Positions 1 through 12,066 are shown, counted from the first letter of the stretch. The stretch is 33,192 nt of DNA from Desulfobacterales bacterium (GCA_025454275.1 JALOOS010000005.1:1-33192); one strand, 5' to 3'. The notes: generated from the letters alone by a model not told the origin. Numbers and translations: made by a program.

Positions 1-2240
1 TTGGCGTAGATGACCTTGCTGTCGCCGGGCGCGTAGAAATCCTCGAGCACCGATGCCGTGCGAAATCCCGTGCGCTCATAGAAGGCGCGGGTGCTGGCAT
101 ACTGCGGCCGGCCCGAAGTATCCGCGTAGAGCGTTGCCCCTCCCGCCTGACGGATCAACCGCTCCACCTCCATGAGGATCATTCGCCCGAGGCCCTTGCC
201 CTGGTTGTCGGGGGCCACCACGATCCAATAGAGGTCGAAGGCCGAGACCGTCATGGGCACCGGCCCATAGCAGGCATAGCCAGTCGTCTGGCCGTTCCGC
301 TCCATGAAGACGAAATGGTACCCGCTGGCCGCTCCCTTGGCGATACGCTCCAGCACAAGCTCTTCGGCGACGATCACCTCGGCGCGGCTGAAGAAGCCGG
401 TGGCCTCCGCCAGGCGACGCACGCGCTGGGGGTCCTGGGGCTCCACGTGGTGCCGGAGCCGGTAGGTCGCAACGGCCGGCGGCGCCGCCCGGCGGCGCGG
501 CGCGGCGGCGCAATGCGCGGCGGAGAGGCCCTCGAAAAAGGCGCGGGCGTTCATTCCCAGCGTGCGCGTCCGGTAGCCTCCCTCCTGCACGACCAGAACG
601 GGGATGCCGAGCTCCCCGATCATCCGCCCGTTGTGGCGGAAATCGGTGCGGGTCAGCGTCCAGGTGCCGGTAGGGTCTCCTTTGGCGGCATCCAGTCCGA
701 GCGCCACGACCAGGAAATCGGGGTCGAAATTCGCGATGCGCCGCAGGGCCGTCGCCAGCGCCTTGCGATAGCGTTCGCCGTCGATCGCCTCCGGCAGGGG
801 CAGGTTCAGGTTGAAACCGGCGCCCTCGCCGCTGCCGATCTCGTCGCGGAAGCCTGAGAAATAGGGGTAGGCGAAACTCGGGTCCCCGTGGATCGAGACC
901 GTCAGGACGTCCGGGCGGTCGTAGAAAATCTCCTGTTGGCCGTTGCCGTGGTGGTAGTCGATGTCGAGAATGGCCACCCGACCCTGCCGGCGCAGGAATT
1001 GGGCGGCGATGGCCGTGTTGTTGAAATAACAAAACCCGCCGAAGGCGCGCCGCTCGGCGTGGTGACCCGGCGGCCGCACGAGGGCGTAGGCCATCCGCCG
1101 CCCGTGGATGAGCTCCTGGGCGGCGGTGAGGGTGCAGTTCACGGCGCCGCGCGCGGCGGCATAGGCGTGGCGGGTAATCGGGGTGAAGGTGTCGATGCAG
1201 AAGTAGCCGGCCAGCACCGAACGGTCTTTCGGGGGGCGGGCCTTGTTGCGGATCGGAAAGACGTAGGGATAGATGGGGTCGTCCTCCTGGATCTCGGCGC
1301 AGGTCCGGCGGAGGAAGTTCACGAAATCGGCATCGTGCACGCTGAGCAGGAGTTTTTCCGGGAAAACCGCGGCCGGAAGGATGTCGAACAGAGGGCCGGC
1401 GGCTATTTCCGACAGAATGCTGCGCACCCGCGCCGGGGCTTCGACGTAGCCGCGCTCGTGTACGTGGTGAATCGCATGCTGGTCGTGAAATACAAGGACG
1501 ATCTTTTCGCAGGGGGTGCCGGCGAGGGCCGGGGCCACCGAGGCAGGCGTGAGGTAGCGGAACTCGCGGAGCCGGACCGGGTCCTCCGTAATGGAGGCGA
1601 CCACCTTCTCCACATATTCCGGGGGAACGGCGCCGGCGTACTTGCGCTCCAGGATCGTGCGGGCCACCGCGCGCATGAAGTCACGCCCCGGCCGTTCGGT
1701 CCGGTCCAGCCCGTCGAACATCAGGTAGGGCATGCAGGTCTGGCCGGCCTTGTACGGGGTCTCGTAGGCCGTGCCGATGATCGGGCGCGCCCCGTAGCGC
1801 TCGTAGAACCTCAGCCGCGCCCGGTTGTCGGGGAGAAGCGCCTCCTGAGGGCAGAGGGCCGAATCATCCGGCAGGCATTCGAAAAAGAGGGCCTGGGCGC
1901 CGGAGGCCGCGGCCTCCTGGCGCACCCGTTCGTAGAGCGCACCGCCCACTCCGCCGCTGGCCCGGCCGACCCGGGTGGCGATCCAGTCGAGGTAGCAGAA
2001 GCGGATGCGGGGCTCGTGCAGGAGAACGGCAAATCCCAATACGCGCCGGCGGCCGTCCTCCGCCACCGAAAGGGTGGTGCGGAACCGTTTCAGAAAAGGG
2101 TCGTGGAGATGGCGGCCGAGCTGGTCGATTTCGGCCGCGGGGACGGCCGCGAAGCGGCTGCGCATGATCGCCTTCACCTGCTCCAGCGCGGCCCGGTTGA
2201 CCGGCAGCACCTCGTCGTAAACGCGGCGGATGCGGAACAT
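1..2240 (-). CDS. GNAT acetyltransferase - Zn-dependent deacetylase (HDAC/acetylpolyamine amidohydrolase family) - GNAT acetyltransferase three-domain fusion; 3' end lies beyond the window
   Basis: Missing from the ORF track because it has no stop in the window. Hand translation from ATG 2240 (MFRIRRVYDEVLP) is stop-free to base 1 (>746 aa). N-terminal GNAT-like part: CYLDWIAT..GGVGGALYER..RLRFYERYGA. Deacetylase motifs: RPPGHHA, GGFCYFNN, LDIDYHHGNG, GLDAAKGD, VQEGGY. C-terminal GNAT: FDLYWIVVAPDNQGKGLGR, TRAFYERTGF. Confidence 0.9.
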   Translation of the reverse strand, partial: MFRIRRVYDEVLPVNRAALEQVKAIMRSRFAAVPAAEIDQLGRHLHDPFLKRFRTTLSVAEDGRRRVLGFAVLLHEPRIRFCYLDWIATRVGRASGGVGGALYERVRQEAAASGAQALFFECLPDDSALCPQEALLPDNRARLRFYERYGARPIIGTAYETPYKAGQTCMPYLMFDGLDRTERPGRDFMRAVARTILERKYAGAVPPEYVEKVVASITEDPVRLREFRYLTPASVAPALAGTPCEKIVLVFHDQHAIHHVHERGYVEAPARVRSILSEIAAGPLFDILPAAVFPEKLLLSVHDADFVNFLRRTCAEIQEDDPIYPYVFPIRNKARPPKDRSVLAGYFCIDTFTPITRHAYAAARGAVNCTLTAAQELIHGRRMAYALVRPPGHHAERRAFGGFCYFNNTAIAAQFLRRQGRVAILDIDYHHGNGQQEIFYDRPDVLTVSIHGDPSFAYPYFSGFRDEIGSGEGAGFNLNLPLPEAIDGERYRKALATALRRIANFDPDFLVVALGLDAAKGDPTGTWTLTRTDFRHNGRMIGELGIPVLVVQEGGYRTRTLGMNARAFFEGLSAAHCAAAPRRRAAPPAVATYRLRHHVEPQDPQRVRRLAEATGFFSRAEVIVAEELVLERIAKGAASGYHFVFMERNGQTTGYACYGPVPMTVSAFDLYWIVVAPDNQGKGLGRMILMEVERLIRQAGGATLYADTSGRPQYASTRAFYERTGFRTASVLEDFYAPGDSKVIYA

Positions 2241-2243
2241 GAC

Positions 2244-3254
2244 TCACCCCCCCTTGCGCCCGGCCGCAGCGATAATGCGCGCCACGGCCGTCTGGAAGGG
2301 AATGCCGGCTGTTTCCAGTGCGGCCGCAAAACCGGCATCAGGCGAAAGGCAGGGGTTGGCGTTGATCTCGAGGATCCAGGGCTCTTCCCCGCCATCGACC
2401 CGGAAATCGACCCGGGCGTAGCCGTTCAATCCGAAGAGCTTCCAGCAGCTCAGGGCCAGGGCTCCCAGCCGCTCCAGCAGGGCGGCATCCTGCCGCGGAA
2501 ACTCGAACCGGCGAGGGGTGTGGCTGAATTCGAAGGAGTCCGGATCCCACTTGGCGCGGTAGCCGACGATGCGCGGCCGGTTTTCGGGATAGCCTTCGAA
2601 GAGAATTTCCGCCGGGGGCAGGAGTTGCGGGCCTTGGGGCGCGGCCAGCAGCGACAGGTTGAACTCCCGGCCGGCGATGAAGCACTCGGCGAAACAGGCG
2701 CCGCCGAGGCGCGGGGCCCTTTCCGGGAGCGCCGCCGCGGCTTCGGTCGCGTTCTGCATGAGCGTGAGATCCGTTTCGTCGAGACCGATCGAGGCATGCT
2801 CCCACACCGATTTGACGATCCATTGCGCACCCGGCGGCGTCTCCGGGGGGGCGGCCAGGTCCGGGGCGTCTGCCGGGAAAGGGCCGATCCAGGCCGGTGT
2901 CGGCAGGCGGGCCGCGGAGAGAAGCTGCTTGGCGAGGATCTTGTGGGAGGTGAGGGCGACGGCCTCCGCCGGAGCCCCGGTGTAGGGCAGGCCGAGGGCA
3001 TCCAGGAGGCCGGGAACCAGGTGGATCAGGCGCCCCGTGCGGTCCAGGGATTCCACCAGGTTGAACACGCAATCGGGCGCAAGCTCAGCCAGGCGCCTCT
3101 TCGCCAGGGCCAAATCCAGGCTGCAGGGCAGGGGGACAGCCGTATGGCCGAGCGCGTGCAGGGCGGCCGCTACCGCGTCGACCTGAACCTCGACATCGCG
3201 TGCATCGGGTGCCTCATGGTCATCGACGGCATTGTGGGCGATGACTACGCGCAT
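2244..3254 (-). CDS. D-Ala-D-Ala-ligase-like ATP-grasp amide ligase (paralogue B)
   Basis: 336 aa. Motifs VFNLVES, LPYTGA, WIVKSVWEHASIG, ECFIAGREF, GYARVDFR, LEINANP. Lacks the GGxSxE N-terminal motif of cell-wall Ddl. Overlaps the upstream gene by 10 nt. Confidence 0.85.
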   Translation of the reverse strand: MRVVIAHNAVDDHEAPDARDVEVQVDAVAAALHALGHTAVPLPCSLDLALAKRRLAELAPDCVFNLVESLDRTGRLIHLVPGLLDALGLPYTGAPAEAVALTSHKILAKQLLSAARLPTPAWIGPFPADAPDLAAPPETPPGAQWIVKSVWEHASIGLDETDLTLMQNATEAAAALPERAPRLGGACFAECFIAGREFNLSLLAAPQGPQLLPPAEILFEGYPENRPRIVGYRAKWDPDSFEFSHTPRRFEFPRQDAALLERLGALALSCWKLFGLNGYARVDFRVDGGEEPWILEINANPCLSPDAGFAAALETAGIPFQTAVARIIAAAGRKGG

Positions 3255-4258
3255 GGCCGCGCGCGCGCAGCGGGCACGGGGATCCGCATCCCGGCGGAGG
3301 CAAGGATCCGGGCGATCAGCTGGTCGAAGGAGATGCCGGCCAGGCCGCAGATGATCGGCAGATCGGAGTGTTCGGGATGCAGCCCGGCGAGCGGGTTCAC
3401 TTCCATGAACTGCGGCCGGCCGCGCCGGTCGCAGCGCAGGTCGAGCCGGCCGGCGTCCCGGCAGCCGAGGACCCGCCAGGCGTTCAGGGCGATCGCTTCG
3501 ACCTCGGCTACCAGCGGGTCCTCTTCCGGGCGCAGGAGCCGGTAGCGCACCAGCTCCTCGGAGTTCTCCTTGTTGTGATAGGAATAGACCTGCTGCTCGG
3601 CGGCCGCTAGAAGCAGCACTTCCATCGTCCCCAGGACCTCCGCTCGCGGCCCGGTGCCGATCACGGCGGTCGTGAACTCCCGGCCGGGCAGAAACCGCTC
3701 CACGAGCACCGGCTGCCCGTAGGCGGCGAGCAGGGCGCCGCAGGCCGGCGGCAGGGCACGCCGGGAGCGGACGATGGAGCTGGCGGAGACGCCCTTGCCG
3801 GTGCCCTCCGCCACGGGCTTGATGAAGTAGGGCGGCCCGAAGCGGATCTCCGCCGCCGCCTCCGGCGAGGCCGCGACGCCGAAATCGCAGGTGGGGATCC
3901 GGGCGTCGCGGATCACGTGCTTGGTCATGCCCTTGTGCAGGGTGAGGCTCATGACCAGCGGGTCTGAAAAGGTATACGGGATTCGGTAGGCGTCGAGAAG
4001 CGCGGGAACCTGGGCTTCGCGGCCGATCCCGGTCAACCCTTCGGCAATGTTGAACACGAGGTCCCAGCGGCCGCCCGCCGCCAGGCGCTCCACCAGCTGT
4101 TGGACGTTTCCGATCCGGTCGGTCTCGTGGCCCAACCGGCGGAGCGCCGCCTCGATGGCCGCAATCGTCTCCTCGCGGTCGAACTCGGCCGTTTCGTCTT
4201 CCGAGTACCCCCGCGCCAGGTACTCGCTCCTCAGATCGTATGTCAGGCCGATCCGCAT
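3245..4258 (-). CDS. D-Ala-D-Ala-ligase-like ATP-grasp amide ligase (paralogue A)
   Basis: 337 aa. Motifs VFNIAEG, IPYTFSD, FIKPVAEGTGKG, ERFLPGREF, AGRLDLR, MEVNPLAG. No GGxSxE motif. Confidence 0.85.
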   Translation of the reverse strand: MRIGLTYDLRSEYLARGYSEDETAEFDREETIAAIEAALRRLGHETDRIGNVQQLVERLAAGGRWDLVFNIAEGLTGIGREAQVPALLDAYRIPYTFSDPLVMSLTLHKGMTKHVIRDARIPTCDFGVAASPEAAAEIRFGPPYFIKPVAEGTGKGVSASSIVRSRRALPPACGALLAAYGQPVLVERFLPGREFTTAVIGTGPRAEVLGTMEVLLLAAAEQQVYSYHNKENSEELVRYRLLRPEEDPLVAEVEAIALNAWRVLGCRDAGRLDLRCDRRGRPQFMEVNPLAGLHPEHSDLPIICGLAGISFDQLIARILASAGMRIPVPAARARPCA

Positions 4259-4274
4259 GCGGGCGCGTTCCGTG

Positions 4275-5600
4275 TCAGGAACCGATCACGTCCGGGTAGC
4301 GGTACTGACGGTCGCAGTAGTTGCGCAGCAGCAGCATGTCCCCCTCGCGTCCCTCCACGTAGTTCGGCATCAGCGGGATTTTACCGCCGCCGCCGGGGGC
4401 GTCGATCACATAGGTGGGCACGGCGTAGCCGCTGGTGTGGCCCCGCAGGCCGCGGATGATGTCGAGGCCGGATTCGACCGCCGTGCGGAAATGGCTCGAC
4501 CCGGTGATCGGGTCGCACTGGTAGATGTAGTACGGCCGCACCCGCATGCGCAGCAGCTGGTGACAGAGCGCGGTCATGGTGGCGACGTTGTCATTGATCC
4601 CCTTGAGCAGCACGGTCTGGGAGCCCAAGGGGATGCCCGCGTTTGCCAGCCGCTCGCAGGCGCGGGTCGCCTCCGGCGTACACTCGGAGGGGTGGGTGAA
4701 ATGCAGGCTCATCCACAGGGGATGGTAGCGCCGCAGCACGCGGACAAGATTCGGGGTGATGCGCTGGGGCAGCACGGCCGGGACCTTGGTGCCGATCCTG
4801 AGAATTTCCACATGCGGGATCGCCCGCAACTGGGAGAGCAGCCACCCGATGCGCTCATCGTTCAAGGTCAGGGGGTCGCCGCCGGAGATCAGGACGTCCC
4901 GCACCGCAGGTGTTGAGCGGATATACTCGATGGCGCGCTCCAACCGCGAACGGCTGGGGTAGATGGCGCCGTGGCCCACCACGCGGGAGCGCGTACAGTA
5001 GCGGCAATAGGTCGAGCAGAAATCCAGCACCAGCAGCAGGACCCGGTCCGGGTAGCGGTGTACCAGGCCGGGGACCGGGCTCATGGAGTCTTCGCCCAGG
5101 GGGTCGTCGGCCTCCTCCGGCGTGGTGATGAACTCGGCTGCCGTGGGCACCACCGTCCGGCGCAGCGCCTCCTGCGGGTCGTCCCGGGAGACCAGGCTCA
5201 TGAAGTAGGGCGTAATGCCGACCGGCAGCCGGGACTGGATTTTCTCGACCGCCGCGCGCTCCGGTTCGGAGAGGTTCAACATGCGCTCCAACTGATCCAT
5301 GTGACGGATCCGGTGGCGGATCTGCCACTGCCAGTCATTCCACTCTTTGTCGGTTACAGCGGGGAAAAAGGTGCGGCGAAACGCGGCCGTCTTGGGGTTC
5401 GAGGCGGGGCGTGACCGGGAGGCCGGAAAGACCGAAACCTTCCCTCTTAAACGCGGCGTGATGTCGGGTAATGGGACAACGTTTTGAAGACAGGCTGCAG
5501 AACCGGGAGGTTCGTCCTCGTTTTCACCTGCCAGCTCCCCGCCTGACCCCGGCACGGAGGCGCTGACAGGTTGCTGAAAACTCGCCGCATCTGGTTTCAT
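4275..5600 (-). CDS. kamA: KamA-family radical SAM/PLP 2,3-aminomutase (lysine 2,3-aminomutase-like)
   Basis: Radical-SAM motif CSTYCRYC, plus LVHRYPDR, SGGDPL, YIYQCD and the PLP-lysine motif DAPGGGGKIP. Start placed at ATG 5600 behind AAAGGAG (441 aa); the ORF-track start at 5741 lacks an RBS. Confidence 0.9.
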   Translation of the reverse strand: MKPDAASFQQPVSASVPGSGGELAGENEDEPPGSAACLQNVVPLPDITPRLRGKVSVFPASRSRPASNPKTAAFRRTFFPAVTDKEWNDWQWQIRHRIRHMDQLERMLNLSEPERAAVEKIQSRLPVGITPYFMSLVSRDDPQEALRRTVVPTAAEFITTPEEADDPLGEDSMSPVPGLVHRYPDRVLLLVLDFCSTYCRYCTRSRVVGHGAIYPSRSRLERAIEYIRSTPAVRDVLISGGDPLTLNDERIGWLLSQLRAIPHVEILRIGTKVPAVLPQRITPNLVRVLRRYHPLWMSLHFTHPSECTPEATRACERLANAGIPLGSQTVLLKGINDNVATMTALCHQLLRMRVRPYYIYQCDPITGSSHFRTAVESGLDIIRGLRGHTSGYAVPTYVIDAPGGGGKIPLMPNYVEGREGDMLLLRNYCDRQYRYPDVIGS

Positions 5601-5613
5601 GGGTTGATTTGAT

Positions 5614-5675
5614 CTCCTTTCTGTTTCGCAATGGTTCCCATTGCCGATTTGCTTGAATTCACATACATAAAGGAG
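5614..5675 (-). promoter_or_regulatory. Candidate RBS-sequestering structure in the kamA 5' leader
   Basis: On the minus strand CTCCTTTATGT (5675-5665) can pair at 10 of 11 positions with ACAGAAAGGAG (5624-5614), which contains the SD. The pairing encloses a perfect 7-bp hairpin GCAATGG-GAA-CCATTGC (5644-5628). Confidence 0.4.
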
Positions 5676-5789
5676 TATGCTGGTTCCATCGGTGATGCTT
5701 TTTACGACGGAGGTGGTTCTGCCGGCCCCGCTGTGCGGCATTACCTGAGAATCAGCCCTTTACCCCCTCGATATGGTATTTTGGCGGCG

Positions 5790-5818
5790 AACCTAATACA
5801 AAATAAAGTGCATGTCAA
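5790..5818 (-). promoter_or_regulatory. Putative sigma70 promoter of the kamA operon
   Basis: TTGACA-17 nt-TAGGTT in an AT-rich intergenic stretch. Confidence 0.55.
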
Positions 5819-6064
5819 CAAAATATTCGCCCGGCCGGGTTTCGCTCTGCAGGCGATTGAAAGTGATTATACAATAAAATTCCGATGATTACAACATATT
5901 CCGGAGCTCCTTGCAGGGAGCCCCCGCACGCGTTTCATCATAATAACCATATGATATGATTAAAAGTGTTTTACGGCCCACGGCGTGCACATTATCGGCC
6001 GGTTTCTGTGAAACTTGAGTTTCAATCATCAGCTCCAACCTTTTGCGGAGAAAGGAGGTCGGTG

Positions 6065-6382
6065 ATGCCTCGACCACCGAAACGAACGAAAAAGAGAGCC
6101 CCTTCACGGCGCCGGATCGAATTCGTCCTGGACAGCCCTCAGGCGAAACAGGTGATACTGATGGGGGATTTCAACCAGTGGGATCCCAAGGTCCACCCGA
6201 TGAAAAAAGACTCCGGCGGCCTTTGGCGCCGGCGGGTGATGATCCATCCCGGGCGCTATGAGTATCGTTTCTGGGTGGATGGGGAGTGGGTCAACGATCC
6301 TCAGAATCCCGAGCGCTGTCCCAACTGCTTCGGCAGCGAAAACAACCTCATCACCGTGACGGATCGAACCGCGCCCGCCTGA
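6065..6382 (+). CDS. Stand-alone glycogen-binding (CBM48/AMPK-beta-like early-set) domain protein
   Basis: AAAGGAGG precedes ATG 6065 (105 aa). Motifs AKQVILMGDFNQW, GRYEYRFWVDGEWVNDP, FGSENN; basic N-terminus. Confidence 0.85.
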   Translation: MPRPPKRTKKRAPSRRRIEFVLDSPQAKQVILMGDFNQWDPKVHPMKKDSGGLWRRRVMIHPGRYEYRFWVDGEWVNDPQNPERCPNCFGSENNLITVTDRTAPA

Positions 6383-6451
6383 GGCGTTGCGCCCGGGAAC
6401 GGAAGCGGCTCGCGCAGACGAGTCACCGCGCGGAGCAGGTCTGCAGCGGAG

Positions 6452-7108
6452 ATGCGCATGTTCAACTTCCTCTTCAAAAAGGAAAAGCAGCTCGAGTCCC
6501 TGATTTACCAGTATCTCGACCATTTCGGCCAAACCCGGGAGCACTTCCTCAAGGCCATGGACACCTGCCTGAACGAAGGCATCTGCGGCGAGTTCGTCTT
6601 CCTGACCGATCAGACCCACAAGTTCGAATCCAAGGCGGATGAGATCCGCGACGAGATCAACTACATGATGTACAGCCGCGCGCTGATCCCTGAATCGCGC
6701 GAGGACATCATGAGCCTGATCGAGCAGGTGGAGGTCATCCCGCGCATTTTCGAGCTGATTCTGCACATCATTCGCACCCAGAAGCTGAAGATCCCCGAGT
6801 TCGTGGTGCTCGAGGTGAAGGACCTGCTCCGCATTTCCGCGGAGAGCTGCGAACTGGTGAGCAAACAGATCGACCTGCTGCTCAGGAACCGCCAGGGCAT
6901 CCGGGTGCTGCTGGCCACCATCGACGGCAACGAAAGCCACTGCGATCACATCGAGCGCAGCCTGATGACGAAGATCTTCGACTCCGATCTAGAGATCGTG
7001 CACAAGCTCCAACTCAAGGAGTTGATCGTGGCGATGGGCGAGATTTCCGACCAGGCCGACCGGGTCTCGCGGCGGGTGAATATTCTCACCCTCAAGAGGC
7101 GGGTCTGA
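6452..7108 (+). CDS. DUF47 family (PhoU-like) phosphate transport accessory protein
   Basis: 218 aa, helical. Repeated ESKADEI / ESHCDHI motifs and EISDQAD. Stop overlaps the start of the PiT gene (TGATG). Confidence 0.85.
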   Translation: MRMFNFLFKKEKQLESLIYQYLDHFGQTREHFLKAMDTCLNEGICGEFVFLTDQTHKFESKADEIRDEINYMMYSRALIPESREDIMSLIEQVEVIPRIFELILHIIRTQKLKIPEFVVLEVKDLLRISAESCELVSKQIDLLLRNRQGIRVLLATIDGNESHCDHIERSLMTKIFDSDLEIVHKLQLKELIVAMGEISDQADRVSRRVNILTLKRRV

Positions 7109-8049
7109 TGCTGCCGCTGTTGGGGGGGGTGTTCCTGGGCTGGTCCCTGGGGGCCAACGACGCGGCCAACTGCTTCGGCTCGGCGGTGGCCTCCCGCATG
7201 GTCAAGTTCCGGACGGCGGCTGCGCTGTGCGCGCTCTTCGTGGTGGTCGGTGCGGTGTTGCAGGGCCGCGCGGGCATCGAGACGCTCAAGGAGCTGACGG
7301 GGGTCAACCTGGAGCAAGCCGTGGTGATTACGGTGGCCGCCGCCCTGACCGTAAGCATCATGACCATAACCGGCCTGCCGGCCTCGACCTCCCAGGCCGC
7401 GGTGGGGGCGATTTTGGGGATCGGCTTCTTCAACCAGGACCTGAACCTCGCGGGGCTGGGCAAGGTGGTGGCCTGCTGGTTCGGCACCCCGGTCGGGGCC
7501 GTGCTGGCCGCCCTGGCGCTCCACCAGCTGCTCGGTGCGGTCTACAACCGGCTGCCGATCACCCTTTTTCAGAGCGACATGCTGCTCCGGGCCGGGCTCA
7601 TCACCGCTGGCGCCTACGCCTCCTACGCCCTGGGGGCGAACAACGTGGCCAATGCCACCGCGGTCTTCGTCGGGGCGGAAATGCTCTCGGTCTCCGCGGC
7701 CGCGCTGATCGGCGGGCTGAGCATCGCTTTCGGCGTGCTCACTTACAGCCGCGGGGTCATGGAGACCGTGGGGCGCAAACTGGTCCGGCTGGACCCCTTC
7801 TCAGCGCTGGTGGTGGTTCTGGCCGGAGGGGTGACGGTGCACTTCTATACGCTCATGGGGGTGCCGGTCTCCACCTCCCAGGCGGTGATCGGCGCGGTGC
7901 TCGGCATCGGTATCATCAAGGGGGTGCAGACCATCCGGCGCGCGACGCTCTACGGGATCCTGGCGGGCTGGTTTCTGACGCCGCCGGTCGCCTGCTTCAT
8001 CGCCATGTGCATTTACTTCGCGATGCACCTGCAGTACGTCCCGCGCTGA
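7108..8049 (+). CDS. pit: PiT family inorganic phosphate transporter
   Basis: Twin signatures GANDAAN and GANNVAN, PASTSQ/PVSTSQ, many hydrophobic helices. Confidence 0.9.
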   Translation: MLPLLGGVFLGWSLGANDAANCFGSAVASRMVKFRTAAALCALFVVVGAVLQGRAGIETLKELTGVNLEQAVVITVAAALTVSIMTITGLPASTSQAAVGAILGIGFFNQDLNLAGLGKVVACWFGTPVGAVLAALALHQLLGAVYNRLPITLFQSDMLLRAGLITAGAYASYALGANNVANATAVFVGAEMLSVSAAALIGGLSIAFGVLTYSRGVMETVGRKLVRLDPFSALVVVLAGGVTVHFYTLMGVPVSTSQAVIGAVLGIGIIKGVQTIRRATLYGILAGWFLTPPVACFIAMCIYFAMHLQYVPR

Positions 8050-8053
8050 CGAC

Positions 8054-10411
8054 TCACTTCTCGAGTGCGATCTTCAGGACATCCGTCATCTTGTCGACGA
8101 AGTGAAAGCGGATCTCCTTCTGCACCTTTTTGGGGATGTCCTCGATGTCCTTCTGGTTCTCCTTGGGCAGGATCACGGTTTTGATGCCCGCCCGGTGGGC
8201 GGCCAGCACTTTTTCCTTGATGCCGCCGACCGGGAGCACCCGGCCGCGCAAGGTGATTTCGCCGGTCATCGCGAGATCCCGGACCACGCGCTGCTTGGTG
8301 AGAAAAGAGACGAGCGCCGTCAGCATCGTGACCCCGGCCGATGGCCCGTCCTTGGGGATGGCCCCGGCGGGGATGTGGATGTGAATGTCGAGGTTTTCGA
8401 AGGTCTCCTCGGAAATTCCCAGCCGCGAGGCCTTGGTGCGGATGAAGCTGAGCGCCGCCTGGGCGGACTCCTTCATCACATCGCCGAGCTGGCCGGTCAG
8501 AATCAGGCGGTCCTTGCCTTTCATGCCGGTGGCTTCCACGAAGAGGATGTCGCCGCCGAACTGAGTCCAGGCGAGCCCGGTCGCCACCCCGGGCGTCGAG
8601 GTGCGGGCCTTGGCCTCGGCGGTGAACTTCACCGGGCCCAGGTATTTGGCGATGGCCTGGGTCTTGATCGTCTCAGAGGTGACGCTCCCCTCGGCGACCC
8701 TGCTCGCCACCCCGCGGCAGATGGTGCCGATCTCCCGTTCCAGGTTGCGCAGACCCGCCTCGCGCGTGTAGCCGGAGATGATGTGCCGCAGGGCGCCGCG
8801 GCTGAAGCGGACCTGTCCGGCTTTCAGCCCGTTCGCCTCCCGCTGGCGGGGGATGAGGTGGCGCTCGGCGATGTGAACCTTCTCGTCCTCGGTGTAGCCC
8901 AGAAGCTGCAGCACCTCCATGCGGTCCCGCAGGGCCGGAGGGACGGTGTCGAGGATGTTGGCCGTGGCGATGAACATCACCTTCGACAGGTCGAAGGGGA
9001 CATCGAGGTAGTGGTCCTGGAAGGAGTGGTTCTGCTCGGGGTCGAGCACCTCCAGCAGGGCCGAGGAGGGGTCGCCGCGGAAGTCGGCGCCCAGCTTGTC
9101 GATTTCATCCAGCATGAAGACCGGGTTGTTGGACTCCGCGCGCCGGATGCCCTGGATGATCCGTCCCGGCAGGGCCCCGACATAGGTGCGCCGGTGGCCG
9201 CGGATTTCGGCCTCGTCGCGCACCCCGCCGAGCGACATGCGGTGGAACTTGCGTCCCAGCGCCCGTGCGATCGACTGGCCGAGGGAGGTCTTGCCGGTGC
9301 CGGGCGGGCCGGCGAAGCAGAGGATCGGCCCCTTGGAGTCCGGCTTGAGCTTGCGCACGGCCAGGTACTCGATGATGCGCCGCTTGGGTTTCTCCAGGCC
9401 GTAGTGGTCGTCGTCGAGCACCTTGCGGGCTTTTCTGATGTCGAGGTTGTCCTCGGTCCCCTGGTGCCAGGGCAGAGCGGTCAGCCAGTCGAGAAAGGTG
9501 GTGGCGACCGTGTACTCCGCCGAGGAGGGATGCATGCGCGCCAGGCGCTCCAGTTCGCGGTCGGCCTCCTTGGCCGCCTCCGGCGGCAGGTTCTTCTCCT
9601 TGACCTTGGCCCGGTACTCTTCGATCTCCACCGAGCCCTCGTCTTTTTCCCCCAGCTCGCTCCGGATCGCCTTGAGCTGCTCGCGCAGGTAGTACTCGCG
9701 CTGCTTTTTGTCCATGTCCTCCTTGACCTGGTCGTGGATCTTCTTGCCGAGCTCAAGGATTTCGAGCTGCTTGTTGAGGATGCGGCTGACGAGCTTCAGG
9801 CGTTCGCCGACCGGCAGGGTTTCGAGCACCTTCTGTTTTTCCTCCATGGAGGCGTTGAGGGAGGAGGCGATCATGTCGGCCAGGGTTCCCGGCTCCTTGA
9901 TCGACTGCGCCATGTACACCACCTCGGCCGGCAGCGTCGGGGAGTGCTGCACCACCCGGGCGAAGAGGTTGACGACGGTGGTCATCAGCGCCTCGATCTC
10001 GGTGTCCCGGGCGGGGTCCTCCTCCAGGTGCTCGACGGCGGCCTGCTGGAAGGGCTTGCCCTCGGCCGGCTGAATCTGCTTGATGCGGAAGCGGCCCAGC
10101 CCCTGCACCAGCAGCTGGGTGCGGTTCTCCGGGGTCTTGGCCATCTTCAGGATCATCGCGCTCGTGCCGATGGCAGCGTAGTGGTCGGCGGGCGGCATGG
10201 CCTCGGGGTTTTCCGCGGAGCGGGCCGGCACCATGCCCAGCATGCGGTCCTTGGACATGGCCTCGTCGATCAGCTGGACCGAGTCCGGGTGCACGACCAT
10301 GAGCGGGAAGACCATTTTCGGGAAGAGCACGTTGTCGGTGATGGGCAGGACGGGCAGGACCCCGGGCATCTTGGCCGCGCCCGGTTGCTCCGGCGCTTTT
10401 TCGTCAGTCAT
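8054..10411 (-). CDS. lon: ATP-dependent Lon protease (LonA type)
   Basis: 785 aa. Lon N-domain, Walker [23 protein letters not shown], Walker B MLDEIDK, catalytic Ser in PKDGPSAG and Lys in VGGIKEK. Confidence 0.97.
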
Positions 10412-10486
10412 CGTCGTCTCCCTCTTTTGCGGCCGTGACGGCAGCCACCGCGGTCGCCGTGCAGGCGTCAGCGGGCGATTTCACGG

Positions 10487-10933
10487 TTATTCGTCGGCGA
10501 TGGGCACCTTCACTGCCTGATCGGTGGGCCGTTTCACCAGGCGGATTTCCAGGAACCCGTTCTTGGAGGCCGCCGATACCTTGTCCGGGTCGATCGGGCT
10601 CGGCAGGAACAGGATGCGCTCGAAACGGCCGTACTGGATCTCGGCCAGCCGGTAGGTGTTTTCCGGGCCGCAGGCCGGCGCCTGGCGTTGCCCCTGGATG
10701 CGCACCGCCTTGCTGCTGATCTCCACCTCGATGTCCTGCCCGGAGACGCCGCCGACCTCCGCCATGATCACGATCTGCTCCGGCGTTTCGTACATGTCCA
10801 TCGGCGGCCGCCAGGTCCGTTCGGACAGCATGAAGGAGGGGCCCATCGAGCCGAGCATGTCCTCCAGGGTCTTTTCAAAACGGGAGGAGAGCTCATCGAA
10901 GTTGTCTCCGAATCGAATCTTGAAGAATTCCAT
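10487..10933 (-). CDS. Hsp20/alpha-crystallin small heat-shock protein
   Basis: Motifs WRPPMDMYET, EIQYGRFERILFLP, NGFLEIRL. Lies directly upstream of lon. Confidence 0.92.
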   Translation of the reverse strand: MEFFKIRFGDNFDELSSRFEKTLEDMLGSMGPSFMLSERTWRPPMDMYETPEQIVIMAEVGGVSGQDIEVEISSKAVRIQGQRQAPACGPENTYRLAEIQYGRFERILFLPSPIDPDKVSAASKNGFLEIRLVKRPTDQAVKVPIADE

Positions 10934-11013
10934 GGCGAGTTCCTTGATCGTTGAGGGTCCTCGGGAAGGATGCGCCGACTGATCCGGTGGAAGTGGTTTT
11001 ACAATCCCGTCTG

Positions 11014-11051
11014 ACGGCCGCGGGTCCCACCGCGGCGGGACCCGCGGCCGT
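11014..11051. other. 15-bp GC-rich inverted repeat between epmA and hsp20
   Basis: ACGGCCGCGGGTCCC-8 nt-GGGACCCGCGGCCGT with no U-tract. Could be a terminator or a 5'UTR structure. Confidence 0.5.
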
Positions 11052-11157
11052 GATCCGAGGTTATCGAAACGCTTCTAGCACATGTCGGAGGGCAAGTAAA
11101 CCCATGCCGAACGCAGGGGGCGGCCGGGTGGGGAGGAGGTTAGACACCCTCCGGTGC

Positions 11158-12066
11158 TCAGAGCGCCTCCGGCACAAAGGCCACGACCGCGTCGATCGCG
11201 GCCGCATCGCAGAAGAGCATCGCCAGCCGATCGAGGCCGAGTGCGTTTCCGGCGCAGGCGGGCAGGTCGGCCAGTGCCGCAAGGAATCGCTCCGGCAGCG
11301 GGGTCACGGTTTTTCCGGCGGCGCGCTGGCGCTCCTGCTCGGCTTCGAATCGGCGCCGCTGCTCGCGCGGCTCGTTCAGCTCGCTGAAGCCGTTGCAAAG
11401 CTCCAGGCCGCCGATGTAAAGCTCGAAGCGTTCGGCCACCCTTGGATCGCCGGGCTTCAGGCGGGCGAGAGAAGCGTGTTCGGCGGGGTAGTCGACCAGG
11501 AAGGTCGGCCGCTGTCGGCCGAGATGAGGTTCGATCGCAAGCCCCATCCATTCGTCGAAGCGGCCCTGCGCCAGGGCCTCCGCGACCGGAACGGGAGCGA
11601 AGCGGGAGAAGGCTTCGGCCACGCTCAGCCGCTCCCAGGGCAGGGAGAGATCGATCGCAAGCCCCTGGTAGGTGAGCGTTCGGTCCGAGCCCAGCTCGCC
11701 CGCAATGGAGCGCACCAGCGCCTCGCAGTCGCGCATCAGGTCGTTGTAGGAGGCGCCGGCGGCATACCACTCGATCAGGGTCATCTCCGGCAGGTGCCGC
11801 CGCCCCCGCTCCGCCTTGCGGAAACATTTGCTGATCTGGAAGATGCGTTCGCAGCCGGCGGCGAGCAGCCGTTTCATGCAGATTTCGGGCGAGGGCTGCA
11901 GCACCCACCCCTCGGCGGTGATGAACTCGATGTGGGCCTCGGGCAGCGCCGCCGGCAGGCGCAGCGGGGTCTCCACCTCGAGGTAGCCGCCGGAACGGAA
12001 GAAACGGCGGACAGCGTCCACGATTGCGGCGCGTCGCTCCAGATTGCGTTGGTTGGGGTGCGGCAT
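11158..12066 (-). CDS. epmA: EF-P beta-lysyl transferase EpmA (GenX/PoxA)
   Basis: 302-aa class II LysRS-like catalytic domain with no anticodon domain. Motifs LEVETP, LQPSPEICMKRLL, HLPEMTLIEWY, ERFELYIGGLELCNGFSEL, ALGLDRL. Confidence 0.92.
   Translation of the reverse strand: MPHPNQRNLERRAAIVDAVRRFFRSGGYLEVETPLRLPAALPEAHIEFITAEGWVLQPSPEICMKRLLAAGCERIFQISKCFRKAERGRRHLPEMTLIEWYAAGASYNDLMRDCEALVRSIAGELGSDRTLTYQGLAIDLSLPWERLSVAEAFSRFAPVPVAEALAQGRFDEWMGLAIEPHLGRQRPTFLVDYPAEHASLARLKPGDPRVAERFELYIGGLELCNGFSELNEPREQRRRFEAEQERQRAAGKTVTPLPERFLAALADLPACAGNALGLDRLAMLFCDAAAIDAVVAFVPEAL

Follow-up and report, generated by a model that had tools for sequence, protein, structure and literature searches.

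A widespread bacterial gene cassette that most likely makes beta-lysine, joins it through a two-part ligase and acetylates it reversibly

Several described systems resemble parts of the locus analysed here. In the NAGGN osmolyte pathway, Ngg combines an acetyltransferase with an ATP-grasp ligase and yields an N-acetylated dipeptide solute; glutathione synthesis uses two successive ATP-dependent ligases to make a tripeptide from free amino acids. Both are similar to our locus in their logic, and both differ from it in using alpha-amino acids and no aminomutase. Graspetide clusters of the microviridin type contain two ATP-grasp ligases and a GNAT, with a gene for a precursor peptide next to the ligases. 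In methanogens and some bacteria, AblA and AblB produce N-epsilon-acetyl-beta-lysine (Pflueger et al. 2003, cited in PMC3543383; Sowers et al. 1990, cited in PMC11201294; excerpts of both citing papers). EF-P is beta-lysylated by the EpmA/EpmB (YjeA/YjeK) system, in which, according to an excerpt of PMC2821294, beta-lysine comes from a KamA-family enzyme without the C-terminal multimerisation domain of lysine 2,3-aminomutase (LAM).

The analysed stretch of DNA (the window) has 33,192 nucleotides and comes from a Desulfobacterales bacterium (GCA_025454275.1, JALOOS010000005.1:1-33192). ORF calling gives four co-oriented ORFs on the minus strand: KamA, Lig1, Lig2 and a GNAT/deacetylase/GNAT fusion. 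The spacing computed from the coordinates is 16 nt, a 10-nt overlap (the start of Lig2 over the end of Lig1) and 3 nt, exactly as in an earlier reading made from the sequence alone (the sequence-only reading), which had described four tightly packed genes. The Pfam domains are Radical_SAM and LAM_C in KamA, Dala_Dala_lig_C in both Lig1 and Lig2, and Hist_deacetyl and GNAT in the fusion. The features are as follows.

3..2240, minus strand: GNAT / acetylpolyamine-amidohydrolase-like / GNAT fusion, 746 aa, open at the contig's first base
3..500, minus strand: C-terminal GNAT domain of the fusion (aa 581-746); about 3 codons before the stop are lost at the contig end
525..1445, minus strand: HDAC-family deacetylase domain of the fusion, acetylpolyamine-amidohydrolase-like (aa 266-572; Hist_deacetyl, PDB relatives)
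1491..2240, minus strand: N-terminal divergent GNAT domain of the fusion (aa 1-250; Acetyltransf_1, E = 1.3e-4)
2244..3254, minus strand: Lig2, second, different Ddl-fold ATP-grasp ligase, 336 aa (profiles, fold, residues)
3245..4258, minus strand: Lig1, Ddl-fold ATP-grasp ligase, 337 aa (profiles, fold, residue conservation)
4275..5600, minus strand: KamA-family radical-SAM/PLP lysine 2,3-aminomutase, 441 aa (profiles, 2A5H alignment)
5601..5783, minus strand: leader of about 180 nt (conserved 5' box, inverted repeat, RBS)
5790..5818, minus strand: promoter-like site TTGACA (5818-5813), 17 nt, TAGGTT (5795-5790) (genus conservation)
5866..5894, minus strand: second, upstream promoter-like site TTGTAA-17-TATAAT (scan; in the genus only TATAAT is invariant)
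11158..12066, minus strand: EpmA/GenX, EF-P lysine beta-lysyl ligase, outside the cassette (TIGR00462, 315.9 bits, cut-off 286.9)

The longest ORF of KamA spans 4275-5741; translation probably begins at the ATG at 5600, which the RBS GAAAGGAGA (5621-5613) precedes, so that the protein has 441 aa. The fusion homologue at locus L015 has 749 aa, compared with 746 aa here, and about three codons are therefore absent from the fusion end. This four-gene cassette is most likely a widespread, unstudied bacterial pathway in which beta-lysine is made, ligated by a two-part ligase and reversibly acetylated. No description of a KamA-Lig1-Lig2 cassette was found in the literature searched, in agreement with the sequence-only reading, which knew of no characterised pathway with such a gene set.

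KamA, Lig1 and Lig2 are colinear in nine of the ten loci of the order. The same arrangement is present in 73 of 80 named loci, picked by Lig1, from several phyla; the record titles of the cassette lineages include Planctomycetota, Bacteroidota and Acidobacteriota, and there are at least 592 matches among species-representative genomes. The synteny in other genomes on which the sequence-only reading had staked its proposal is thus found across phyla, and on account of this conserved order the cassette is far beyond chance. The adjacent KamA is absent in four loci with upstream room. Four of 25 genus genomes yielded no Lig1 match, one of them (G009) rated 100% complete, so the cassette is dispensable. 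Clustering of neighbouring ORFs of at least 90 aa from the 80 loci gave no further conserved neighbour (none in more than 8 loci), and no linked transporter, regulator, hydrolase, depolymerase or exporter. By their record titles, the sources span saline, peat and freshwater habitats; a purely osmotic role is for this reason not favoured.

KamA aligns with residues 6-359 of 416 of PDB 2A5H (E = 7.8e-138). It is extended by about 75 aa at the N-terminus, and most of the clostridial LAM C-terminal domain is absent, the matched positions of the LAM_C profile being 1-48 of 127. The alignment shows that KamA retains the cysteines of CxxxCxxC, the Arg two residues past the third Cys, the Asp of YQCD (2A5H 293), and the Asp (330) and Lys (337) of VIDAPGGGGK. 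The three radical-SAM cysteines are kept in 71/71 orthologues covering the site, and the 2A5H positions 134, 293, 330 and 337 in 71, 73, 73 and 72 of the loci covering each (71-73 orthologues). The two aspartates and the Arg singled out by the sequence-only reading are therefore conserved well beyond this genome. We take the Lys to be the PLP-binding residue, and the Asp pair and Arg to hold lysine as in the 2A5H structure.

On the subfamily model TIGR00238, KamA scores 354.1 bits, above the cut-off of 199.2. The lysine model TIGR03820 gives 487.7 bits, the glutamate aminomutase model 437.6 and the arginine aminomutase model 384.9. The value on TIGR03820, an AblA equivalog model, is below its cut-off (525.4) because just profile positions 3-352 of 417 are matched. 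On the EpmB model TIGR03821 the score is 248.1 bits, below the cut-off of 369.3. By these profiles and residues, KamA most likely turns lysine into beta-lysine. Of the two basic beta-amino acids proposed from the sequence alone, beta-Lys is favoured by the best score and the lysine-type residues, and beta-Arg is unlikely.

Like AblA/AblB, the cassette would couple a KamA-type lysine 2,3-aminomutase to acetyl-CoA-dependent N-acetylation of a beta-lysine amine. It differs in lacking an AblB-type GNAT, in having two additional, obligatory ATP-grasp ligases and an optional deacetylase with a second GNAT, and in its KamA without most of the C-terminal domain. The absence of the LAM C-terminal multimerisation domain is shared with EpmB (YjeK), as described in the PMC2821294 excerpt; however, the cassette KamA falls on the LAM/AblA side (487.7 versus 248.1 bits) and adjoins ligases, not efp.

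Lig1 and Lig2 are 24-32% identical. The nearest fold of both is Ddl (E. coli DdlB, PDB 2DLN; TM 0.70-0.76), with which they have in common the ATP-binding, Mg-binding and acyl-phosphate-stabilising residues: equivalents of K97, K144, E180, E187, K215, R255, D257, E270 and N272 are present in both. Each of these nine positions is retained by 79-80 of 80 loci in Lig1 and by 75-76 of 76 in Lig2. Dala_Dala_lig_C is also the top Pfam family of the two proteins, as would be expected if they were ordinary cell-wall D-Ala-D-Ala ligases lying beside the aminomutase by accident. The probability of this is negligible in our view, as the scores on the Ddl models TIGR01205 and NF002378 (110.6 and 155.2 bits for Lig1; 75.2 and 94.4 bits for Lig2) are far under the cut-offs of 245.65 and 243. 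A regular expression search found the N-terminal GG.S.E motif in neither protein, as the sequence-only reading had noticed, and the substrate side of Lig2 is altered at the equivalents of S150 (to A), Y216 (to W), S281 (to A) and L282 (to G). The D-Ala-binding residues of Ddl are presumably these four and E15 in GG.S.E. Lig1 has a Glu at the position after the conserved Lys. The genome has a genuine Ddl elsewhere (contig C181, 246.3 bits), and a Ddl above the cut-off is present outside the cassette in 4/4 genomes tested. The earlier distinction from cell-wall Ddl is borne out, and a modified cell-wall peptide, listed at that time among the possible products, is without support.

A further difference from Ddl is that Lig1 and Lig2 probably form a heterodimer or a fused chain. 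The model of the Lig1+Lig2 complex has ipSAE values of 0.80, 0.80 and 0.78 (best control 0.00), a partner pLDDT of 87 and a contact agreement of 94%; 58 of 80 solved complexes pass the mark for such models, as do 2 of 110 mismatched pairs. In both chains the predicted interface is formed by the N-terminal and central parts, again as in Ddl, and since Ddl homodimers have been solved, the pass may mirror this likeness. Among the best 120 of 502 long homologues there are 92 single-chain Lig1::Lig2 proteins, 19 KamA::Lig1, two Lig1::Lig2::GNAT, six double Lig1-like and one other. Lig2 and the C-terminal GNAT (cGNAT) form a single open frame in 7 of 31 loci. Model and fusions suggest that Lig1 and Lig2 probably act as one unit, a point that is new here. 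The proposal that the beta-amino acid is ligated twice, or by a heterodimeric ligase, is in keeping with the conserved catalytic residues, the complex model and the single-chain fusions in many bacteria.

One unit with two different active sites could also be a polymerase. The alternating sites would build a beta-lysine polyamide, cyanophycin-like or poly-beta-lysine-like, from a monomer that has a carboxylate and two amines. In this scheme the role of the GNAT would be capping or priming and that of the deacetylase uncapping, and the product would be a nitrogen store or a polycation. Lig1 does match the cyanophycin synthetase model NF010623, at a weak 26.2 bits that shows a shared ATP-grasp fold only. 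We find a polymerase unlikely: the nearest enzymes by sequence and fold are the dipeptide-forming Ddl enzymes, the deacetylase is nearest to enzymes of small acetylpolyamines, and the neighbour clustering linked no depolymerase or exporter.

The N-terminal GNAT domain matches Acetyltransf_1 weakly (22.7 bits, cut-off 20.7), and the checked Gly of its glycine-rich stretch is kept in 31/31 loci. The C-terminal GNAT domain scores 59.7 bits in Pfam and the Gly of its acetyl-CoA motif (R/Q-x-x-G-x-G/A) is kept in 40 of 46 loci; it also matches PDB 2r7h (E = 2.7e-49), a structural-genomics entry without known substrate. Among solved structures, those closest to the deacetylase domain are acetylpolyamine amidohydrolases: PDB 6PHR, aligned over about 306 residues (E = 2.5e-73), and 9GKZ, 3MEN and 3Q9B. 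Every locus compared (31-32 of 31-32) retains the His-His pair, Asp/His/Asp and the Tyr of GGY; we assume that Asp/His/Asp are the Zn ligands and that the Tyr is catalytic. Unlike these relatives, the domain has a GNAT domain fused on either side and is tied to a beta-lysine pathway. The reversible acetylation suggested by the sequence-only reading is supported by the acetyl-CoA motifs of both GNAT domains and by the complete set of catalytic residues in the deacetylase.

The deacetylase half is present in 35 of the 80 named loci, and a GNAT in 66 compared with 77 for the ligases. Seven loci with room beside the ligases have no acetyl module there, and in three of the three genus genomes without an adjacent GNAT a cGNAT homologue is present elsewhere. 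The acetyl module is optional or unlinked; of the four-gene set first described, it is the KamA-Lig1-Lig2 core that is constant. The ligases might nevertheless have an unrelated function, beside a synthesis of N-epsilon-acetyl-beta-lysine such as that of methanogen AblA/AblB (Pflueger et al. 2003, cited in the PMC3543383 excerpt): the AblA model gives the best KamA score and a GNAT is usually present. This is very improbable, because the ligases occur in more loci than the GNAT and are fused to KamA and to GNAT in other bacteria, and because the model of the AblB-type GNAT, TIGR03827, has no match in the fusion and is above its cut-off in 0/4 genomes, compared with 2 of 14 control genomes.

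We think it probable, with moderate confidence, that the locus is a biosynthetic cassette complete in itself, with a small cytoplasmic amide or peptide of beta-lysine as its product. KamA, judging from its conserved active-site residues, would convert L-lysine to beta-lysine. Lig1 and Lig2 would pair as a heterodimeric twin ligase whose two active sites differ; each enzyme would turn a carboxylate into an acyl phosphate, and the two would jointly form two amide bonds around beta-lysine. The existence of KamA::Lig1 fusions suggests that Lig1 receives beta-lysine, and that of Lig2::GNAT fusions that Lig2 either uses or yields the acetylated species. The C-terminal GNAT would then acetylate a free amine of the product, and the extra N-terminal GNAT and the deacetylase would remove and reset an N-acetyl group on an aminoalkyl chain, for example on the epsilon-amine of beta-lysine. 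The compound would thereby alternate between a positively charged and an uncharged state. The product might serve as a compatible solute, as a polyamine-like cation or as a store of nitrogen.

EpmA lies 5.6 kb from the cassette. As in the EpmA/EpmB system, the genus has EpmA and a Lys-loop EF-P (with a PGKG loop in the source genome). EpmB was not found in the genus, and the only KamA-family gene there is that of the cassette. For these reasons the cassette KamA may also be the source of beta-lysine for EpmA and EF-P in the genus, a link that is new here. EpmA is near the cassette in 2 of the 80 named loci, both from close relatives, that is, within the genus only.

The proximity of EpmA in a genus without EpmB could also mean that the cassette modifies a macromolecule (EF-P, another protein or a cell-wall precursor) by adding a beta-lysyl peptide and, reversibly, an acetyl group. 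The C-terminal GNAT resembles RimI (TIGR01575, E = 1.5e-10) and proteins are also deacetylated by HDAC-family enzymes. However, the proximity is limited to the genus, while the cassette also occurs in the other phyla named above; the RimI score of 41.3 bits is below the cut-off of 86.4, and the deacetylase domain is closest to small-molecule enzymes. Ddl-fold enzymes, for their part, act on small substrates. We consider a macromolecular target decidedly unlikely.

The reading as a small-metabolite cassette has a bolder form. Each neighbouring pair is fused somewhere, and KamA, Lig1, Lig2 and the GNAT might on this ground be a physical assembly line for an undescribed class of beta-lysine metabolites, in hundreds of mostly anaerobic species of many phyla; the acetyl switch would set the charge and, in the genus, the job of EpmB would also be taken over. 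We regard this as possible but doubtful. If true, EF-P modification and the metabolite would share one beta-lysine pool in the genus.

A promoter scan found two sites in 6.5 kb, compared with 0.8 +/- 0.9 in shuffles, and places TTGTAA-17-TATAAT at 5894-5866. In an alignment of eight genus loci, in one of which (L019) the spacing is 10 nt wider, TATAAT is invariant; an invariant TTGACA (5818-5813) follows about 54 nt downstream, and 12 nt after it an invariant TGTATTA. Ten genus loci share TTGACA and TGTATTA unchanged and at fixed spacing, and the TAnnnT pattern of this site is kept in seven of the eight aligned. The leader has a conserved 5' box, CAAAAYACCATAT..AGGGG, and an inverted repeat at 5628-5644. 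It had no match in an Rfam search, no conserved fold was found in the genus loci, and it is not conserved as coding sequence in the genus alignment.

No RNA contig lies on the TTGTAA-17-TATAAT site, which is not evidence of absence. RNA contigs from four metatranscriptome runs end at 5702-5757, just downstream of the TTGACA site, a weak hint. The libraries may carry DNA, and such contigs are therefore no proof of cassette transcription. In four runs of wetland metatranscriptomes there are contigs at least 99% identical on KamA, Lig1 and Lig2 (Lig2 in one run), and one RNA contig bridges the Lig1/Lig2 junction.

The cassette consists of four reading frames that are all co-oriented on the minus strand, with a spacing of 16 nt, an overlap of 10 nt and a spacing of 3 nt between successive genes. 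The source is a metagenome-assembled genome, rated 80% complete, in 380 contigs; the window is the opening 33,192 bases of its contig C150. The frames given by the ORF listing are:

4275-5741, minus strand: KamA-family gene (longest ORF)
3245-4258, minus strand: Lig1, a Ddl-fold ATP-grasp ligase
2244-3254, minus strand: Lig2, a second, different Ddl-fold ligase
3-2240, minus strand: GNAT/deacetylase/GNAT fusion ORF, 746 aa, running off the contig end

The ATG at 5600 is most likely the start of KamA: GAAAGGAGA lies before it, equally spaced in every aligned relative, and the sequence further upstream shows no conservation as coding. Only about three residues are missing from the fusion protein, as judged from its homologue at locus L015, which has 749 aa. 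A divergent group upstream of the cassette (5966-8049, plus strand) encodes a small CBM48/AMPK-beta-like protein (138 aa) and a DUF47 (PhoU_div) protein; it also includes a probable phosphate-permease gene (7108-8049, plus strand), named by eye.

Lig1 has thousands of close relatives, with identities of 70-100% among the best 120. It is present in 29 of 41 genomes of the order, representing 8 of 17 genera, and KamA, Lig1 and Lig2 are colinear in 9 of the 10 loci fetched from genomes of the order. When a single genome of each species was scanned, at least 592 Lig1 matches were obtained, of which the best 80 loci were surveyed. KamA lies directly 5' in 73 of these 80 (three of the other seven end at a contig edge and four have room), Lig2 comes next in 77 (the other three loci are truncated there) and 66 then have an acetyl module. 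The module is the full GNAT-deacetylase-GNAT in 28 of the best 80 loci and the C-terminal GNAT (cGNAT) alone in 26; it is absent from seven despite about 6 kb of room. Three genomes of the genus have no adjacent GNAT, and each of them has a homologue elsewhere, 53-54% identical. No other gene family occurs in more than eight of the flanks of the best 80 loci. Clusters found in the flanks of 15-17 loci were rejected as conserved neighbours, being antisense shadow ORFs. From the locus counts, the unlinked GNAT homologues and the lack of a recurring neighbour, the cassette is a self-contained three-gene core with an acetyl module that is optional and sometimes unlinked. The operon proposed in the sequence-only reading is real, conserved and uncharacterised.

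Among the matches listed, the record titles name Desulfobacterota, Planctomycetota, Acidobacteriota, Bacteroidota, Ignavibacteriales, Gammaproteobacteria, Lentisphaerae, Fibrobacteres and others, and one cultured carrier, Desulfosarcina variabilis Montpellier. The cassette of locus L037, 57-79% identical to that of the window, is on a contig labelled Patescibacteria group; this label is probably a binning error, because the contig is so short (3.5 kb).

KamA contains a Radical_SAM domain and matches positions 1-48 of the 127 of the LAM_C profile. It exceeds the cut-off of the KamA subfamily model (354.1 bits, cut-off 199.2). The subtype was placed by the scores of curated models, with 2A5H as the sole reference alignment. 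The AblA lysine 2,3-aminomutase model scores highest (487.7 bits); the glutamate model follows with 437.6, the arginine model with 384.9 and the EpmB model with 248.1. KamA does not reach the cut-off of the AblA model (525.4) because it has no match to the C-terminal part of that profile. The clostridial enzyme of known structure, 2A5H, aligns with E = 7.8e-138; all three cluster cysteines are matched, as are Arg134, Asp293, Asp330 and Lys337, which are functional residues of that enzyme. All these equivalents are kept in every orthologue from the named loci that covers the site (71-73 of 71-73). This conservation, together with the model scores, indicates that the substrate is almost certainly lysine.

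Both ligases match only the C-terminal ATP-grasp domain of Ddl, with scores far under every Ddl cut-off, and their cross-hits are 24-32% identical. The predicted structures of Lig1 and Lig2 (10-row alignments; pLDDT 86 and 82, respectively) have Ddl as the nearest fold (TM 0.70-0.76), and fold searches with these models returned no relatives of use beyond Ddl. Equivalents of K97, K144, E180, E187, K215, R255, D257, E270 and N272 of Escherichia coli DdlB (numbering taken from the alignment), the ATP, Mg and catalytic residues of that enzyme, are present in both proteins. These nine positions are kept in 79-80 of 80 Lig1 sequences and 75-76 of 76 Lig2 sequences. The GG.S.E motif is absent from both Lig1 and Lig2, and the D-alanine-side residues S150, Y216, S281 and L282 are replaced in Lig2 by A, W, A and G. 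In Lig1, a Glu follows the conserved Lys. Contig C181 encodes a true Ddl, which scores 246.3 bits although the contig end truncates it, and one is also found in all three other genomes tested. The retained ATP-grasp residues, the lost D-alanine side and the separate true Ddl lead to the prediction that Lig1 and Lig2 are active ligases whose product is not D-Ala-D-Ala.

Two loci carry a third Ddl-like paralogue of the ATP-grasp type, which scores 82.8 bits on TIGR01205 and is 344 aa long in genome G024:

G000:C233:1560-2267 (L108)
G024:C14:48659-49372 (L109)

It was rejected as cassette-related, being solitary with unrelated neighbours (GH17-like, beta-CASP RNase, DUF192).

The sequence-only reading had envisaged either two ligation steps or a heterodimeric ligase; the complex model and the gene fusions favour the two ligases working as one unit. 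The Lig1-Lig2 complex model (10-row alignment each) gives ipSAE values of 0.80, 0.80 and 0.78, with 0.00 for the best of three controls, a partner pLDDT of 87 and a contact agreement of at least 94%. Of 80 solved complexes, 58 attain the mark used for such models, as do 2 of 110 mismatched pairs; that Lig1-Lig2 passes it may partly reflect likeness to Ddl homodimers, since these are solved. A search for longer homologues found 502 proteins at E <= 1e-40, and the best 120 of them were classified: 92 are Lig1::Lig2 single chains, 19 are KamA::Lig1 fusions, two are Lig1::Lig2::GNAT fusions, six have two Lig1-like halves and the remaining one is of another kind. Seven of 31 loci also have Lig2::GNAT as a single open frame. 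Any two adjacent genes of the cassette therefore have a fused form somewhere, which speaks for a physical assembly line that follows the gene order. The six double-Lig1-like proteins (P0208, P0211, P0218, P0222, P0224 and P0227), from Myxococcota-labelled records, have halves 35-44% identical and constitute a more distant double-ligase family.

In the fusion protein, the N-terminal domain is a weak GNAT match. The best solved relatives of the deacetylase domain are acetylpolyamine amidohydrolases (6phr, E = 2.5e-73; 9gkz, 3men and 3q9b), and cGNAT matches the structural-genomics entry 2r7h (E = 2.7e-49), which is uninformative on substrate. A candidate locus tag for 2r7h was dropped, since the single match, Dde_3047, figures in a paper on copper stress as a Ser/Thr phosphatase. 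The catalytic and cofactor motifs are conserved in all three domains. The neighbours of the unlinked GNAT or GNAT-deacetylase genes in relatives are unrelated, except for TctC/TctA in one genome. There, at 6583-11177 of locus L107 (G019:C20), a stand-alone GNAT-deacetylase gene of 602 aa comes immediately 3' of the transporter genes TctA and TctC, which run in the same direction; the cassette of this genome is without an acetyl module.

An invariant TATAAT (5866-5871 in the window) is common to ten loci of the genus, as is, about 54 nt 3' of it (64 nt in the group of loci L019/L026/L028), an invariant TTGACA, followed after 12 nt by TGTATTA and then by a leader of 195-233 nt. The -10 element at a 17-nt spacer from TTGACA is TAGGTT in the window, and 7 of 8 aligned loci have the pattern TAnnnT. 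A conserved box, CAAAAYACCATAT..AGGGG, at 5761-5783, the presumed 5' end of the leader, is common to all aligned loci of the genus. An inverted repeat at 5628-5644, with perfect 7-bp arms separated by 3 nt, sits just 5' of the ribosome-binding site; it might form a hairpin that masks translation or serve as an operator. Palindromes occupy the same place in relatives, with the same arms in locus L024 and of the GTTGA..TCAAC type in L014, L016 and L027. A sigma-54 promoter was rejected: with at most two mismatches allowed, the window contains 3 matches to the motif TGGCAC-N5-TTGCW, fewer than the expected 10.9, and none of them is near the operon. The Rfam search of the leader gave nothing but a chance-level intron fragment (E = 0.49), and that of the whole window gave no match at gathering score. 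RNAalifold found no conserved fold in the leader of nine genus loci (three pairs, none covarying, -0.19 kcal/mol).

This DNA is present in wetland and sediment metagenomes. In four wetland metatranscriptome runs there are contigs at least 99% identical to the 5' part of KamA with the leader, and to Lig1; a Lig2 contig of the same identity occurs in one run, and a single contig spans the Lig1/Lig2 junction. The upstream ends of the KamA/leader RNA contigs are at 5702, 5733, 5753 and 5757. The RNA contigs cover neither the fusion gene nor 5860-6076 which, for contig data, does not imply absence. These matches hint at expression driven by the downstream promoter but do not prove it, because the contigs come from libraries possibly carrying DNA.

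The closest known system is AblA/AblB, the lysine aminomutase and acetyltransferase pathway to N-epsilon-acetyl-beta-lysine. The cassette differs from it in that the AblB model is unmatched and the ligases are the constant partners; it differs from Ddl in that its ligases are not Ddl. A full-text literature search (supplements outside its scope) found no product, no description of the cassette and no known osmolyte, polyamine or peptide pathway matching it. The earlier interpretation, in which a basic beta-amino acid is ligated and reversibly acetylated, is supported overall: on balance, the cassette probably makes a small beta-lysine amide or peptide via a two-site ligase, with an acetyl switch. 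To identify the compound would close a metabolic gap in sulfate reducers and other anaerobes that live in wetlands and sediments, establish two-site ligation by a heterodimer or a fused chain as a new use of the Ddl fold, and explain the job of an acetylpolyamine-amidohydrolase-like enzyme between two acetyltransferases. The new results are the complex-model support, the counts of fused forms, the metatranscriptome hint, the sigma-54 and leader-RNA negatives in this lineage, and the occurrence of EpmA, the beta-lysyl ligase of EF-P, without EpmB, its usual aminomutase.

EpmA is encoded in the window, on the same strand as KamA and 5.6 kb upstream of it:

11158-12066, minus strand: EpmA/GenX (315.9 bits, cut-off 286.9)
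10487-10933 and 8054-10411, minus strand: Hsp20-like and Lon genes, between EpmA and the cassette

The EF-P of the source genome has the loop KPGKGQA. EpmA is over the cut-off in 23 of the 25 genomes of the genus. Exactly one KamA-family gene, that of the cassette, is present in 20 of the 25; in one (G001) it is split into two pieces, and in four (G006, G009, G014 and G018) it was not found. None of the 25 has a second KamA-family gene or an EpmB-type gene. By coordinates, EpmA and KamA are 4-6 kb apart on the same strand in 11 genomes of the genus. Among the best 80 named loci, two, both from close relatives, have EpmA in their flanks; loci from beyond the genus do not.

Bailly and de Crecy-Lagard (PMC2821294) report that just 2 of 725 genomes have yjeA but no yjeK, and that YjeK is without the LAM C-terminal domain and produces (R)-beta-lysine. 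The cassette KamA resembles YjeK, as described there, in that this domain is missing, but by model score it is not EpmB. On the simplest reading, the cassette KamA would also supply EpmA in the genus, provided that it makes a suitable enantiomer of beta-lysine. Against this, no KamA at all accompanies EpmA in genome G009, whose completeness is rated at 100% and whose contamination is 10%. The pattern raises the question of whether a LAM-type aminomutase can serve EF-P. Other families of the order have an extra, short YjeK-type gene (268-293 bits, frames of 360-410 aa). Another KamA-family type, with open frames of about 600 aa scoring 314-339 bits on TIGR00238, is also seen in other families of the order; examples are:

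G026:C18:877-1923
G034:C154:739-1776
G040:C77:27510-28556

This type is possibly the fused aminomutase of another cassette.
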